Shown one piece after another: positions 1,232 to 45,045 of a DNA stretch of 45,206 nucleotides (within the stretch, counting starts at the first letter, position 1; each line of letters starts with the position of its first letter). The stretch lies in the sequence record NC_031081.1; one strand, given 5' to 3'. Source of the DNA: Escherichia phage Envy. A program made the translations under genes and the position numbers. The notes under the pieces were generated by a model that saw only the letters and a program-made list of their open reading frames with translations, had not been told where the DNA came from and made no database searches.

Positions 1232-3519
1232 AAGACTTCGAACGCCTGTTTCTCGATACCGAGACATTTAGCGGGGTGGACCTGAAGAAAGTAGGTGCGT
1301 ACGCCTACGCGGAGCACCCAACCACCGAGATTATGATCTGCACCTACGCCATAGACGAGGGCCGCGTGCAGACATGGGATTGCACCGAGTCCCCTAAAAT
1401 GCCGCGTGAACTTCGCAAGGCGCTCCGCCGGGTATCCCGCAAGAAAGCAAAAATCGTCATGGCTAACGGCCTCCTGTTTGACCGCCTGGTTATCCGTGAG
1501 AAGTGGGGTATTGACCTACCAGTTAGCCAGATCGAAGACACCATGATTATGGCCTTCCGTCACGCATTACCCGGCAGCCTTGATATGCAATGCCAGGTAC
1601 TGGGCGTAGATGCTGAACATGCGAAGGATAAAGCAGGCAAGGCGCTGATTAAGCGATTCTGTAAGCCAACGCCGAAGACTTACAAGGTCCGCCGCTATAC
1701 CCGCGAGACTCACCCGGAAGAGTGGGCCAAATTCCTCAAGTATGCGAAATACGACATCATCGCAATGCGTGAAGTGTACTGGCGTATCCCGGATTGGGGT
1801 AATACTCCGAAGGAAGACCAGATACTGGCAATTGACCAGTTGATCAATGACCGCGGATTCTACGTGGATACCAAACTGGCCTACGCCGCTATTAAAGCCG
1901 TGGAAGCGCACAAAGAAGAACTGAAAGAAGAGGCTATGGAGAAGTTTGGCGGTAAGCTAACCGGCAACGACTTCCTGCCATTGCTGCGCGATATTGCTCC
2001 GGCTTTCACTATCCATAATGCGCAGAAATCCACGCTGCACGACCTTCTTGCGGATCCTGACTTCCCGGATGAGGGCAAAGTGCTGATTGAAATGCGCCTC
2101 GGTGCGTCATCAACGGCATCGACCAAATACAATCCGCTCGTTAATGGCCTATCCGCCGATGGTCGCCGCCGTGGGTGTCTTCAGTATGGTGGTGCAAAGC
2201 GCACGCTGCGCTGGGCAGGTAAAGGTTTCCAACCTCAAAACCTGGCACGCGGAGAGTATAGCGACGATCACGAAGGGAAGATTAAGCGCCGCGAAGGTGA
2301 GAGCGACGTCGCTTTTTGGGTCCGGTCGCACATGCTCACCAACGGCATCAACTCCCTGTTACGCGGTACCGCGCACTGGGCGTATGACATATCTAAGCTG
2401 ACCGCCTCGACCGTCCGCGGGTGCATCATTCCGGCGAAGGGCAAGAAGTTTGTCGTCGCGGACTACTCCAACGTTGAAGGGCGTGGCCTTGCCTGGATCG
2501 CTGGCGAGAAAACCGCGCTAATGGTGTTTAAGGCCGGACGCGATATCTATTGCGAGACTGCCGGTAAGATGTTCGGCCTTGACCCGGATTACATCAAAGC
2601 CAACCGCAAAGACTTGCGCCAGATCGGAAAGGCGTGTGAATTGGGACTGGGCTATGGTGGCGGCGTTGCGGCGTTCTTGCAGTTCGCTAAAAACCTGGGC
2701 CTCGACCTTTACACTATGGCGGACGTGATGAAAGGCACGTTCCCGGATCACATTTGGGCGGCGGCGAAACGCGGCTATGAGTACGCCCGCATTAACGAAG
2801 CGAAGCGCCCGCCGAAGCCTGGTAAGAAAGACGAGCGCCCAACTTACATACTGCCGAAAAACGTATGGCTGACGTGCGACGCGATCAAACGTATGTGGCG
2901 TGAGGCTCACCCGAAGACGGTAGCCTTTTGGGCCGAGCTTGAGGACGCGGTGTTGTGTGCAATCCGCAATCCGGGCAAAGCATACTGGGCTGGCGCGAAC
3001 GTTCGCCCGGACGGAAGGAAAGCGCTCAAGATTGTGCGCACGAAGGCGAAGCACGACCCAACCTTCGACGAGGAGCGCGACGACCCGGACGCCGCGGGGT
3101 GGTGGTTGAAAATTGAGTTGCCGTCGGGGCGCATCATGAGCTACCCGGGCATCGCGCTGTCTGTCACGACCGAGATCGACGAAGATACTGGCAAGAAACG
3201 CACCAGCACCCGCATTAAATACCAGGGCGAGAACCAGACGACGCGCCAGTGGGGATTCCAGTACACCTACGGCGGCAAACTGACGGAGAACATCGTACAG
3301 GCGTTGTGCCGCGATATTCTCGCATGGTCCATGCCTGGCGTTGAAGCTGCGGGCTATGAAATCGTCCTGTCAGTACACGACGAATTGATCACCGAAGTGC
3401 CAGACACTGACGACTACACGACCGAGGAGCTTTGCGCGCTGATGTGCGACCTGCCAATTTGGGCGAAAGGCTTCCCACTTGCCGCAGAGGGCGATTGCAT
3501 GTATCGCTACCGCAAGTAG
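1228..3519 (+). CDS. family A DNA polymerase with N-terminal DnaQ-like 3'-5' exonuclease
   Basis: 763 aa; FLDTETFSG exo motif; RQIGKACELGLGYGGG (motif B-like) and LSVHDELITEV (motif C-like). Confidence 0.9.
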   Translation: MKDFERLFLDTETFSGVDLKKVGAYAYAEHPTTEIMICTYAIDEGRVQTWDCTESPKMPRELRKALRRVSRKKAKIVMANGLLFDRLVIREKWGIDLPVSQIEDTMIMAFRHALPGSLDMQCQVLGVDAEHAKDKAGKALIKRFCKPTPKTYKVRRYTRETHPEEWAKFLKYAKYDIIAMREVYWRIPDWGNTPKEDQILAIDQLINDRGFYVDTKLAYAAIKAVEAHKEELKEEAMEKFGGKLTGNDFLPLLRDIAPAFTIHNAQKSTLHDLLADPDFPDEGKVLIEMRLGASSTASTKYNPLVNGLSADGRRRGCLQYGGAKRTLRWAGKGFQPQNLARGEYSDDHEGKIKRREGESDVAFWVRSHMLTNGINSLLRGTAHWAYDISKLTASTVRGCIIPAKGKKFVVADYSNVEGRGLAWIAGEKTALMVFKAGRDIYCETAGKMFGLDPDYIKANRKDLRQIGKACELGLGYGGGVAAFLQFAKNLGLDLYTMADVMKGTFPDHIWAAAKRGYEYARINEAKRPPKPGKKDERPTYILPKNVWLTCDAIKRMWREAHPKTVAFWAELEDAVLCAIRNPGKAYWAGANVRPDGRKALKIVRTKAKHDPTFDEERDDPDAAGWWLKIELPSGRIMSYPGIALSVTTEIDEDTGKKRTSTRIKYQGENQTTRQWGFQYTYGGKLTENIVQALCRDILAWSMPGVEAAGYEIVLSVHDELITEVPDTDDYTTEELCALMCDLPIWAKGFPLAAEGDCMYRYRK

Positions 3520-23205: not shown

Positions 23206-23535
23206 TTATTCAGTCTCAGACGAGGGGGGCCATTGACCCCCGTCTAGTCTGAAAGACTGGGCTTTGTCCCGCCTGTCCCGATCGGCTAAACCCCGCGGCA
23301 GCACTGGCGGGGCGGGGGTGCTGTCCCGCTTTGTCCCGCCCCTTGTTTGTCCCGCTTTTTGTCCCGTTTGGTTTATGCAGTAAAACTGAATAGGTATGCG
23401 CTTTTCAGAGGGGTGCCAGATCGGGACGTCCCGCTTGTCCCGCTTTTAGTTTATGCAATAATAGTAAATAAGTATGCAGTTTTTGAGGGGCGGGACAAAA
23501 CGGGACGTCCCGCTTGTCCCGCTTCATTATGCGGG
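23206..23535. repeat. noncoding element copy A: conserved hairpin, GTCCCGC iterons (8 or more), palindrome GGGACGTCCC, three AT-rich TTTATGCA units
   Basis: first ~58 bp and a ~53-bp iteron block identical to copy B at 39428..39625. Confidence 0.8.
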
Positions 23536-39427: not shown

Positions 39428-39625
39428 TTATTCAGTCTCAGACGAGGGGGGCCATTGACCCCCGTCTAGTCTGAAAGACTGGGGTGCTGTCCCGCTGTCC
39501 CGCTCCTCTGGAAGCCGCGCCATCCGTGGCGGGACGGGGGTGCTGTCCCGCTTTGTCCCGCCCCTTGTTTGTCCCGCTTTTTGTCCCGCTTACTTTATGC
39601 AATAAAACTGCATAACTATTCACTA
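39428..39625. repeat. noncoding element copy B: same hairpin, GTCCCGC iterons and TTTATGCA AT-rich unit as copy A
   Basis: identical ~58-bp hairpin module and ~53-bp iteron block at same relative spacing (108 bp). Confidence 0.8.
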
Positions 39626-42024: not shown

Positions 42025-42354
42025 TTACTTTGAAGTTTTATTATTGCGTACCCAGGAGCGCACTGTGCTCTGATTAATTCCGGTCAACTCGGCAATCATC
42101 GCCCAGGATTTACCTTCCTCACGTAGACGGATAACCTGTTTTTTGTATTCTTCCATTTCTTCATTGTGTTTTTGCAGCTTGCTTGCTGCCGTGCCGTTGA
42201 GCAATTCCAGCTTCGCGCGCAATTCTTTTTCGGTAAGTCGCAGACGTTCGATTTCAAATAGCACCGCACCCACGGCATCGGTATACGCCCAGGACCGGCT
42301 AGTCTCACTGCAAACAGTCTTCGTTAACATTTCGATTGCGTCGTTTACATTCAT
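42025..42354 (-). CDS. HTH DNA-binding protein, putative early regulator
   Basis: 109 aa; C-terminal HTH SWAMIAELTGINQSTVRSWV; first gene of minus operon. Confidence 0.6.
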   Translation of the reverse strand: MNVNDAIEMLTKTVCSETSRSWAYTDAVGAVLFEIERLRLTEKELRAKLELLNGTAASKLQKHNEEMEEYKKQVIRLREEGKSWAMIAELTGINQSTVRSWVRNNKTSK

Positions 42355-42427: not shown

Positions 42428-42458
42428 TTGAAACGGGCGCGCACGCGTGTAATAATAC
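42428..42458 (+). promoter_or_regulatory. sigma70-like promoter (TTGAAA-16/17-TAATAAT)
   Basis: hexamers; followed about 30 nt later by a terminator. Confidence 0.45.
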
Positions 42459-42463
42459 TTTCC

Positions 42464-42521
42464 GTCTCATTGTCTCTTATTGGTTAGCGCCGTCGCATTT
42501 TGCTTCGGCGCTTTTTTTTTG
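42464..42521 (+). ncRNA. candidate short promoter-to-terminator transcript (about 55 nt): small RNA or leader attenuator
   Basis: lies between promoter 42428..42458 and hairpin plus T-run 42486..42521; no ORF. Confidence 0.3.
42486..42521 (+). terminator. rho-independent terminator-like hairpin with 9-T run
   Basis: AGCGCCG-loop-CGGCGCT then TTTTTTTTT. Confidence 0.5.
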
Positions 42522-42531
42522 AAATTAGTTG

Positions 42532-42560
42532 TTGACTCCCTTCTGCAACCAATCTAATAT
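42532..42560 (+). promoter_or_regulatory. strong sigma70-like promoter (TTGACT-17-TAATAT) for plus-strand early genes
   Basis: near-consensus hexamers, 17-nt spacer containing TGCAACCAAT. Confidence 0.55.
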
Positions 42561-42620
42561 TCACTCCGTCGACAGGGCATACCGCCCGGACACCTAAACT
42601 TAACCAATCGGAGATACACC

Positions 42621-43136
42621 ATGTTTGAACAAATCGTAAACTTGATTACTCGCGGCGTAGTAGCGCTGGAAACCATCGCTAAGCATTATGAAACCGTTGG
42701 CGCTGCCGTTGGTAAGCAGGAAGATAAAAAGCCATCTAAGGCGAAAAAAGAAGTCGTCGAAGACGACGACGATGGCGCTGAAGACGAAGCACCGGCGAAA
42801 ACCAAAAAAGCACCGGCTAAAGGTAAGGCTAAAAAAGAAGTCGTAGAAGATGACGACGACGATGCCGAAGACGAAAAACCGGCTAAGTCTAAAAAAGCAC
42901 CGGCAAAAGGCAAAGGCAAGAAAGATGCCGATCCGCTGGCAGAGATGCGCGACGAGATCAAACAGTATGCCGCGATTATTGCCGGTGGTGACGACGACGA
43001 CGCGAACGACGAATTTGACGACCTGCTGGAATCGTTCGAGATCAAATCAATCGCCAAGCTGGAAGATGAAGACGTCGAAGACTTCCACAAAGATCTTAAA
43101 GAAATCGTCGAAACTTATTTCGAACTGGAAGATTAA
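42621..43136 (+). CDS. acidic low-complexity protein with tandem 29-aa repeats
   Basis: 171 aa; repeats KKEVVEDDDDGAEDEAPAKTKKAPAKGKA x2; first gene after promoter. Confidence 0.6.
   Translation: MFEQIVNLITRGVVALETIAKHYETVGAAVGKQEDKKPSKAKKEVVEDDDDGAEDEAPAKTKKAPAKGKAKKEVVEDDDDDAEDEKPAKSKKAPAKGKGKKDADPLAEMRDEIKQYAAIIAGGDDDDANDEFDDLLESFEIKSIAKLEDEDVEDFHKDLKEIVETYFELED
42744..42917. repeat. 87-bp tandem repeat x2 inside CDS 42621..43136
   Basis: two adjacent units about 85 percent identical. Confidence 0.7.
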
Positions 43137-43184
43137 TATTATCCGGCCCGCTAATCTGCGGGCCTATTTTTAGAGGACGAGACA

Positions 43185-43436
43185 ATGGCACGCTTCACGC
43201 TAATTGAGGCGGTGGATTCCCGCGACCAGCGCCCGTACTATTGGCTATTCGAACGCATCGGCAGCTTTCAGTCACGCGTTGCCGTAATAGACAAACGCCG
43301 CAACACCCCCGCGCAAATTAAGCGCACCACCTTTATTAATCCCGACTTTTATATTTGGGCGGATTCAAATCTGGAATATGTTCGCTTCGCAGTTGCATCC
43401 GAAGCAAAAACAATCGACCGCTGGGAGACAAAATAA
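43185..43436 (+). CDS. hypothetical early protein (83 aa)
   Basis: AGAGGA RBS before ATG. Confidence 0.55.
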   Translation: MARFTLIEAVDSRDQRPYYWLFERIGSFQSRVAVIDKRRNTPAQIKRTTFINPDFYIWADSNLEYVRFAVASEAKTIDRWETK

Positions 43437-43615
43437 TGAAATTCTTCGTCATGGCAACTTGCCACGAATTAAACGATCACACTTCTTTTATTGTTGAAAA
43501 CACCAACGCAAGCAATTGCTTTGTGGACGCGCAAAATGAAGTTAAGCGCCGAGTCAAAAAAGCTGGCCTGGCGAATGTGAAATATGTAATTGTCCAGTTT
43601 ACACGGGTGGAATAA
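43436..43615 (+). CDS. hypothetical small protein (about 59 aa)
   Basis: internal ATG of track ORF; TAATG coupling at both ends. Confidence 0.4.
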   Translation: MKFFVMATCHELNDHTSFIVENTNASNCFVDAQNEVKRRVKKAGLANVKYVIVQFTRVE

Positions 43616-45045
43616 TGGCGATTAAACCAAAACGTAGAACGCAATCCGGTAGCAATACGGAACACTCATTACTCGGCCCGTCCGGTGCTAAAAAATGGAT
43701 GGGTTGCCCCGCCGCCCTGGTGGTGGAAAAAGATATCCCGAACGAATCCGGGCAAGCGGCGATTAACGGTACGAGTATGCACACCGTATCTGAAGTCGTG
43801 CTCAACCGTATTATCGCCGGTGAGAAGCTGATAACCGCTAAGACGTACAAAGGGTGCTACGTCGAGAACGAAGGTAAGGGACCGGTAAAGGCACACCCGA
43901 AAGCACCGAAAGGCGGCGTGCTGGTCAACGACGACATGGTGAAACAGTGCGACGCATACATCGACCACTGGCGACCGCTCCTCGAAGTGGCGGAGTTTGT
44001 TCAGCTTGAGATGCGCGCCGATCTCACCCGCGTCCTACACTCTGGCTTCGAGATCGACGGCAACCGGGTTAAGACGTTCGGAACTGCAGATATGGTCATG
44101 GTCATGAAGAAGACCGACGGCACGTACATGCTGATTGTTGGCGACCTGAAGACGGGGCGGCATAAGGTCGAGGCGAAAGAAAACAAACAGCTGATGTTGT
44201 ATGCGCTGGGCCTGCTGCGCAAGCTGAAAACCATGTACGACATTACGACCGTGCGCCTGGTTATCTTCCAGCCGTATTGCGGCGGGGCGTCGGAGTGGGA
44301 TATTTCGGTAGAAGCGCTGGAGATATTCGCGAAGTTTGCGGCCAAGCGTGCTATCGCCGCCCTGGAAGCGTACGCCCGCGGCAAAAAGGGACTCACCCGT
44401 GCCGACTTCCGACCGAGCGTTGATGCGTGTCAGTGGTGCAGATTTGCGGATCAGTGTAGCGCCCGCGCTAAGGCTGCAATCGACACGATGACCCCACCAA
44501 CGGCAACAGACGAAGACCTGGGCGACGACGTGAGTATTGCGACAGAGGAAGAATGCGCCAATCACGACCGCAATATGGCCCGCGAAGCCCGGAAGGCGGC
44601 CCGACGTGCGAAGCGTGGTAAGAAAGAAGCGGCCCCCGGCGCTATGAGCGCGGCGGAACTGCGCAAGGCTTATGAAGGCCTTGATGCGATGCGCCAGCAC
44701 ATCAAGGCTATCGAGTCCGCGGTATTCAAGGCGGTCATGGCGGGCGAAGGTGAATCGCTAGGCCTCAAGATGGTTGCCGGTAAGGAAGGGATCCGCAAGT
44801 GGGCGGACGAGAGCGAAGTGATTGAAATCTTCACGAAGGCCCGGATCAAGCGCGATGTGATGTACAAAGAAACATTGCTCAGCCCGACCGATGCCGAGAA
44901 GGTACTGAAGGACGAAAAACCGAAAGTGTGGGCGAAGCTGTGTGATAAAATCACGCGCGCACCAGCTAAACCGGTATTAGCACCCATCGACGACCCGCGC
45001 CCTGCGTGGTCTGTAGCTACTGACGAGGACTTAAGCAATGAATAA
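43615..45045 (+). CDS. PD-(D/E)xK nuclease, DUF2800-like, with C-terminal Cys cluster
   Basis: GPSGAKKWMGCPAAL, VGDLKTGRHKVEAKENKQLMLYALGL and CQWCRFADQC recalled as DUF2800-type features. Confidence 0.65.
   Translation: MAIKPKRRTQSGSNTEHSLLGPSGAKKWMGCPAALVVEKDIPNESGQAAINGTSMHTVSEVVLNRIIAGEKLITAKTYKGCYVENEGKGPVKAHPKAPKGGVLVNDDMVKQCDAYIDHWRPLLEVAEFVQLEMRADLTRVLHSGFEIDGNRVKTFGTADMVMVMKKTDGTYMLIVGDLKTGRHKVEAKENKQLMLYALGLLRKLKTMYDITTVRLVIFQPYCGGASEWDISVEALEIFAKFAAKRAIAALEAYARGKKGLTRADFRPSVDACQWCRFADQCSARAKAAIDTMTPPTATDEDLGDDVSIATEEECANHDRNMAREARKAARRAKRGKKEAAPGAMSAAELRKAYEGLDAMRQHIKAIESAVFKAVMAGEGESLGLKMVAGKEGIRKWADESEVIEIFTKARIKRDVMYKETLLSPTDAEKVLKDEKPKVWAKLCDKITRAPAKPVLAPIDDPRPAWSVATDEDLSNE

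Follow-up and report, generated by a model that had tools for sequence, protein, structure and literature searches.

A phage protein family with a conserved N-terminal helix and an acidic C-terminal bundle on a length-variable linker, encoded beside the replication-recombination genes of Dhillonviruses

The gene at 42621-43136 of Escherichia phage Envy (NC_031081.1; the whole stretch analyzed, 45,206 nucleotides, is called the window here) encodes a three-part protein whose conserved functional elements are an N-terminal helix and a C-terminal acidic bundle. The 29-residue repeats between them make up a disordered tether of polymorphic length rather than a surface that mimics DNA. Comparative sequence evidence indicates that the gene behaves as a core, syntenic member of a replication-recombination module across several phage groups, and we lean, tentatively, toward an accessory or hub protein of that module, carrying its acidic domain on a flexible tether. 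What the present analysis adds to this family, catalogued as phrog_3127, is its tripartite architecture, the polymorphic linker, the synteny with DUF2800 and the hairpin behind the gene.

The open reading frame described in a sequence-only reading of this DNA is real: it begins with ATG, a GGAG motif ends 7 nt before it, and its translation is as highly acidic as had been claimed, with 51 D/E, 29 K/R, a net charge of -22 and a pI of 4.46. The surrounding 1.3 kb shows 100% identity with Sloth, an Escherichia phage of the genus Dhillonvirus (KX534339.1), and matches 153 phage records, nearly all of them Escherichia and Shigella Dhillonviruses. Several of the records checked annotate a 60-codon N-terminal extension, whose variable leader sites number six, two and one at the first, second and third codon positions, respectively; most of the 38 diverse aligned relatives begin exactly at the N-terminal helix. 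On these comparisons the extension is probably a mis-annotation, and the long annotated isoforms (229-247 aa) that start upstream in the leader were rejected, as the leader variation is not coding-like. The features of the gene and its surroundings are collected in Table 1.

Table 1. Coordinates of the studied gene, its parts and the neighboring features in the window
Feature	Position	Strand	Basis or remark
Best promoter match in the region, TTGAAA-17-AATAAT, extended -10 TG, 10/12	42428-42456	+	
Sigma-70-type promoter-like site, TTGACT-17-TAATAT, 9/12	42532-42560	+	Kept in 6 Dhillonviruses; promoter annotated in HK578
Shine-Dalgarno GGAG	42610-42613	+	Kept in 6/6 aligned phages
CDS, 171 aa	42621-43136	+	ANY29912.1 "hypothetical protein"; phrog_3127
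N-terminal amphipathic helix, aa 1-30 (core aa 1-24)	42621-42710	+	Conservation; AlphaFold helix 2-28
Disordered charge-segregated polyampholyte linker, aa 31-102	42711-42926	+	pLDDT <50; charge analysis
Repeat unit 1, aa 42-70, KKEVVEDDDDGAEDEAPAKTKKAPAKGKA	42744-42830	+	TRF; unit alignment
Repeat unit 2, aa 71-99, KKEVVEDDDDDAEDEKPAKSKKAPAKGKG	42831-42917	+	TRF; unit alignment; one unit absent from HK578
C-terminal acidic three-helix bundle, aa 103-171	42927-43133	+	Conservation; AlphaFold
Intrinsic terminator/attenuator, GGCCCGC-TAATCT-GCGGGCC then TATTTTT	43145-43174	+	Between the gene and the next ORF (43185)
Small ORF, 83 aa, phrog_4965	43185-43436	+	Conserved in Dhillonviruses
Small ORF, 59 aa, phrog_9934	43436-43615	+	Conserved in Dhillonviruses
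DUF2800/PD-(D/E)XK nuclease	43615-45045	+	Three genes downstream

The division into three parts emerges from a comparison with about 140 homologues. A search of 5.8 billion proteins yielded 104 close relatives, and 38 diverse members of the family were aligned. Called lengths among the close relatives reach 239 aa; counted from the MFEQ start, the complete ones measure 115-179 aa, with residues 1-31 and 102-171 almost invariant and 22-86 aa between them. Across the 38 diverse members, the helix is the most conserved element of the family (24 aa, net charge about -1, with L8, R11, A15, E17 and A20 nearly invariant). The linker spans 26-99 aa in the same set, has a net charge of -0.6 +/- 3.8 and contains no nearly invariant residues. 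The C-domain, of about 65 aa, has a net charge of -13.4 +/- 4.5, nearly invariant R110 and F155 and a conserved GD-D-D/E loop; in the window protein its charge is -19 (65 C-terminal residues counted), within a family range of -4 to -21.

Structure prediction with AlphaFold2 agrees with this division when it is supplied with the 38 diverse sequences. Residues 105-167 reach a pLDDT of 80-96 and are predicted to form helices at 105-122, 126-138 and 149-167, the N-terminal helix (2-28) has a pLDDT of 70-78, and most of residues 29-99 fall below 50, as expected for disorder. A first run, based on an alignment of close relatives only, was uninformative (pLDDT 46). The N-terminal helix has hydrophobic residues at heptad positions a, d, e and g and polar ones at b and c only, a pattern from which we infer that it is buried in a groove or an oligomer rather than anchored in a membrane. 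Three distant relatives of 208-212 aa (P0109, P0111 and P0116) carry the acidic C-domain in two tandem copies, so duplication in this family acts on the folded domain too, not on the linker alone.

The tandem 87-bp duplication that had been proposed at 42744-42917 was recovered by TRF (period 87 bp at 42736-42925, 2.2 copies, 81% matches, score 250), and its two units share 70/87 nucleotides and 25/29 amino acids. At period 87 the best register gives 73/87 matches, compared with 38.7 +/- 3.4 (maximum 53) in 2000 codon shuffles of the linker, which is far beyond what low complexity or compositional bias alone would give and identifies a true duplication. The units differ at nine synonymous and four non-synonymous codons, which indicates that the duplication is old, that the peptide sequence has been maintained and that the units are under purifying selection.

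The sequence-only reading had described a highly acidic protein with tandem charged repeats of 29 residues. The duplication and the acidity stand, but the repeat region carries no net charge (21 acidic and 21 basic residues), and the acidity is concentrated in the last 70 residues, outside the repeats (27 acidic, 6 basic). The disorder and charge analysis suggested at the time finds the C-domain folded and acidic and the linker disordered and net neutral, with 0.60 of its residues charged, a net charge of -0.01 per residue and a kappa of ~0.46 (z = 6.1 versus shuffles). The other comparison suggested then, of repeat copy number in related phages, gives zero, one or two units: linker lengths in the close relatives fall into three groups that correspond to these copy numbers, and the alignment of HK578 with Sloth has an 84-nt gap where one unit is missing. 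The charged repeats thus form a disordered, net-neutral linker whose unit number differs (0, 1 or 2) between near-identical phages, and they are not the functional core of the protein. Across linker variants the acidic and basic counts co-vary (r = 0.87), so that net charge stays near zero, and the basic patch directly before the C-domain is retained even by the shortest variants. Copies of the 29-residue unit may be gained and lost through recombination or slippage between the 87-bp units.

By profile comparison the window protein belongs to phrog_3127, a family catalogued without an assigned function, and matches it over the full length (E = 4.4e-54; aa 1-171 aligned to profile positions 1-178 of 178). 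Judging by an exhaustive profile search of 1.84 billion representative proteins, which returned just 46 clusters, the family is small and phage-specific. Within Dhillonvirus, the gene is found in essentially every genome: its region matches 153-154 records, compared with 158 (154 full-length) for the polymerase gene. The region is also the more conserved of the two, with 116 records at 90-95% DNA identity versus 62 for the polymerase gene.

Its neighborhood is equally stable. The minus strand to its left encodes an HTH protein and a primase-helicase; on its right come two small ORFs, then the DUF2800/PD-(D/E)XK nuclease (Pfam E = 2e-66) and, at a greater distance, DNA polymerase I, with an Enc34-type SSB between nuclease and polymerase in syntenic relatives. 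The products of the two small ORFs, phrog_4965 and phrog_9934, have no Pfam or NCBIfam match. A DUF2800 homologue is encoded downstream on the same strand in 67/72 IMG/VR loci, at a distance of 42-1269 nt (median 609); among the five exceptions, three have less than 300 nt of downstream sequence, and two (L021 and L071) have 1.2-1.8 kb in which no nuclease was detected. Similarly, a Cornellvirus (Guernseyvirinae) has a distant homologue at the same position with a DUF2800 nuclease downstream. The nuclease also follows after zero to two genes in five of six metagenomic contigs whose family members are 23-35% identical to the query; the sixth ends one gene past the family gene. In three of these six contigs the family gene is not the first of its operon. 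Since the nuclease is kept nearby while the place in the operon varies, adjacency to the nuclease, not operon position, is the conserved feature. This core and syntenic behavior across several phage groups is not that of a sporadic anti-defense accessory gene.

Two further observations concern this side of the genome. The 109-aa HTH protein at 42025-42354 (minus strand) is labeled "DNA recombination nuclease inhibitor gamma" in the Sloth record; its only matches are HTH_23, Sigma70_r4_2 and phrog_9366 "transposase," no Gam signal was found in it, and on these matches the label looks wrong. The heptamer GTCCCGC, often as TGTCCCGCTTTT, forms dense clusters at 23266-23522 (9 copies) and 39489-39589 (7 copies), and the whole window holds 23 copies versus 8.7 +/- 3.0 expected. 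One cluster sits just downstream of the primase-helicase gene, and the clusters may be iterons or regulator-binding sites.

As for expression, a position at the head of a rightward operon behind sigma-70-type promoters, with early and probably high expression, remains a plausible description of the gene. The more specific claim that it directly follows the strongest early promoter holds only in part: a promoter-like 9/12 site lies directly upstream (relatives have TTGACA with TATTAT or TATCAT there), but the best site, at 10/12, is cut off by a terminator-like hairpin about 30 nt past it (GCGCCG...CGGCGC followed by nine T; dG -16.2, z = -2.7). This promoter-hairpin unit (42428-42520, plus strand), upstream of the gene's own promoter, is kept in six Dhillonviruses and could yield a small RNA of ~60 nt.

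Between promoter and ribosome-binding site, the phages HK578, slur05, Opt212, ZCEC12 and bob contain a highly conserved leader insert of ~136 nt (at about 3170-3310 in the HK578 locus, L001), which the window lacks (deletion point 42591/42592). In the leader of phage bob, two compensating changes in the stem around a CCC-GAAA-GGG hairpin convert CCAGG...CCTGG into CCCGG...CCGGG. The leader gave no Rfam hit, and a known RNA family was rejected on that ground; the folding energy of the whole leader is no better than that of shuffles (z = +0.56). The insert is a candidate cis-regulatory RNA.

A GC-rich hairpin also follows the stop codon of the gene. It is found in 64/72 IMG/VR loci, compared with 2% of random 50-nt windows, with stem sequences that vary by lineage, and a GC hairpin occupies the corresponding place in 9/9 diverse loci. 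In the Jersey-like group the U-tract after it has just 3-4 residues; instead of terminating fully, the hairpin may therefore attenuate transcription or stabilize the mRNA. With host-type promoters driving the gene and the hairpin insulating the genes downstream, the product would probably appear early and in larger amounts than the replication proteins encoded downstream. Set against an early role is the name "late protein" that UniProt gives to the homologue in Salmonella phage MB78, although this is a name only.

Beyond phrog_3127, comparisons with known families gave no specific match. The match to Pfam DUF6669 (PF20374) covers the C-domain only and, at 14.6 bits and E = 0.024, stays below the gathering threshold of 27 bits; with just 2/38 diverse members matching at all, membership was rejected. 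The Pfam Ocr and ArdA models gave no hit at E up to 1 with the window protein and 38 relatives, and NCBIfam and PDB searches by sequence and profile, from the single sequence and from the profile, gave nothing above threshold. A C-domain profile search of the protein database found no new members and no domain fusions. With Foldseek, no PDB entry fell below E = 0.3, and viral models yielded only uncharacterized relatives, namely eiAU gp46, Salmonella phage St162 and the MB78 "13.88 kDa late protein." Aligned by hhalign, the C-domain profile reaches a probability of 0.2% (E = 0.31) against lambda Gam, whose homology was rejected on this value, and <1% against Red-beta. The chains compared included the C-terminal domain of Red-beta, in complex with lambda Exo, and lambda NinB; the three-helix bundle of this Red-beta domain/lambda Orf (NinB) is a binding module for lambda exonuclease and SSB. 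The sequence-only reading had named a clear homologue among structural or replication proteins as evidence against its proposal; none was found. Membership in the histone H1-like/HC2 proteins was rejected, as 1/38 members matches Pfam HC2 (E = 0.01) and the repeat region is net neutral, not net-basic. The anti-Tmn protein of Dhillonvirus (ORF35 of SM_S22; PMC11846954) was likewise set aside as a different gene; the studied gene is present in both SM_S22 and SM_A8, and its product is all-helical.

We favor the hub role because of the core-gene behavior of the family and its tight synteny with the nuclease, SSB and PolA module, made up of a DUF2800 RecB/AdnA-like end-resection nuclease, a T7 gp2.5-like SSB, DNA polymerase A and the primase-helicase. 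The 24-residue amphipathic helix, with its wide hydrophobic face, would mediate self-association or docking, the net-neutral linker of 29-residue repeats would act as a tether, and the acidic bundle might dock onto a partner's basic or DNA-binding surface, in the manner of the acidic tails found in SSB and T7 gp2.5. Early abundant expression, oligomerization of the helix, docking of the acidic domain and the identity of any partner are all points that we infer. Several considerations weigh against such a hub. The synteny can mirror shared expression timing instead of physical contact, the family is far rarer than the widespread DUF2800-SSB-PolA module and so is not an obligatory part of that machinery, and a dose raised by the hairpin suits a protein that titrates an abundant target no less than it suits a replisome accessory.

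Titration is also what a serious rival explanation, which we consider possible but doubtful, would involve: early in infection the acidic bundle, perhaps made multivalent by the N-terminal helix, would act as a nucleic-acid mimic that blocks a DNA-binding enzyme of the host. The candidate targets are RecBCD, a type I R-M or BREX complex (as for Ocr) and a nucleoid protein; RecBCD is the most plausible, since lambda gam and T7 5.9 also lie just upstream of their own phage's exonuclease, an established gene order. Such a decoy would profit from the conserved, strongly negative charge of the C-domain, from the host-type promoters directly upstream and from the hairpin, which could lift the dose as suits a titrating inhibitor; a place upstream of a RecB-like nuclease and an annealing-type SSB would parallel gam-bet-exo and T7 5.9-6. 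The sole annotated "Gam" is, moreover, the HTH protein described above, and no recognized RecBCD inhibitor was noticed in the region examined. However, the protein resembles Gam, Ocr, ArdA and other solved mimics neither in sequence nor in fold, its universal, syntenic and slowly evolving gene is atypical of arms-race genes, and RecBCD is scarce, so that a high dose would be needless for its titration. With regard to restriction, the three BASEL Dhillonviruses checked (Bas14-16) have 0-1 EcoKI and EcoCFT_I sites, which suggests site avoidance over an Ocr-like inhibitor and renders published restriction phenotypes uninformative on such a role; the genus is less resistant to type I/II R-M than Queuovirinae (BASEL paper, PMC8594841).

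The remaining explanations place the activity elsewhere. It is unlikely that the repeat region is itself active, as a blocky polyampholyte with KKAPAKGK segments like those of histone H1 and AlgP tails, which could bind DNA or form condensates and, with multivalency from the N-terminal helix, organize phage DNA or a replication compartment. The marked charge segregation, the maintained net neutrality, the purifying selection on the units and the basic patch that survives in the shortest variants are all consistent with this idea, but natural proteins of 115-124 aa have a linker of 22-31 aa and no acidic block, and these variants, nearly devoid of a linker, make a DNA-binding or condensate role less likely. 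The linker sequence is also unconserved across the family, in which both termini are conserved, and the HC2 match is that of a single member. Very improbable, in our view, is a transcription modulator that binds RNAP through an acidic bundle resembling sigma-70 region 1.1 or small phage RNAP-binding proteins. The gene does open an early operon next to an HTH regulator, and weak compositional matches to the sigma-70 non-essential region and RpoD (E ~0.007-0.017) occur in single members; these matches are far below the cut-offs, there is no fold match to sigma region 1.1, AsiA or Gp2, and the conserved neighbor is the nuclease-polymerase module, not a regulator. In three relatives, indeed, there is no adjacent HTH gene, and the family gene follows a helicase or small genes. 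Finally, the family could form an oligomeric hub, built on the N-terminal helix, that displays several DNA-like acidic bundles on charge-blocky arms. Such a multivalent decoy or scaffold might capture a host DNA-end or DNA-binding machine or nucleate a replication-recombination compartment, with arm length tuned through gain and loss of repeat units; that it represents an unrecognized class of early protein seems improbable.

Dhillonviruses and Jersey-like phages rank with the coliphages and Salmonella phages that are isolated most often, and both therapy collections and defense-system screens make use of them. Escape mutants in Dhillonviruses implicate the SSB (retron Eco8) and the polymerase (Borvo). 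The DUF2800 protein Bas14_0045, from a phage named Bas14, is reported in a 2026 preprint (doi 10.64898/2026.07.14.737667) to be a non-essential AdnA/RecB-like resection nuclease and to trigger retron type IX. It belongs to the same Pfam family as the DUF2800 protein of the window, and its numbering fits that of Dhillonvirus TheodorHerzl, in which the studied gene is gp48. The studied gene and its accession were not found in the escape-mutant literature on SECphi4 and BASEL phages, supplement included. Our analysis concerns a core protein, probably highly expressed early, that adjoins a nuclease and an SSB whose Dhillonvirus counterparts reportedly trigger retron defenses. Whether it serves the replisome or disarms a host enzyme, the answer would fill a gap in our picture of cell takeover by Dhillonvirus and Jersey-like phages, and the natural series of linkers with zero, one or two units offers a ready-made test of how important tether length is. 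Should it turn out to be an ordinary accessory protein, the chief gain is the corrected annotation, including the start codon, the domain map and the repeats as a linker rather than a DNA mimic.

Among known systems, T7 gp0.3 Ocr and ArdA resemble the studied protein in being very acidic and in being encoded by the first gene behind early host-type promoters. They differ from it in sequence and fold, and the studied gene is a core, syntenic part of a replication module. Ocr, moreover, is a rigid elongated dimer with no disordered linker, whereas the studied protein lacks such a rigid, elongated, B-DNA-mimicking fold. Lambda Gam and T7 gp5.9 are closer in setting, as small acidic helical proteins encoded immediately upstream of a phage end-processing nuclease and an annealing or SSB protein, although Gam is a coiled-coil dimer and the studied protein consists of a helix, a disordered linker and a three-helix bundle. 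The acidic C-terminal tails of E. coli SSB and T7 gp2.5, together with the ribosomal stalk protein bL12, which combines an anchor, a flexible hinge and a domain that recruits partners, offer a likeness that is a design analogy only: the studied protein has neither an OB fold nor bL12 homology, and its docking module would be a folded three-helix bundle instead of a short tail. What they have in common with it is the plan of an N-terminal anchor or oligomerizer, a variable flexible linker and an acidic docking module, here in a T7-like replication setting.
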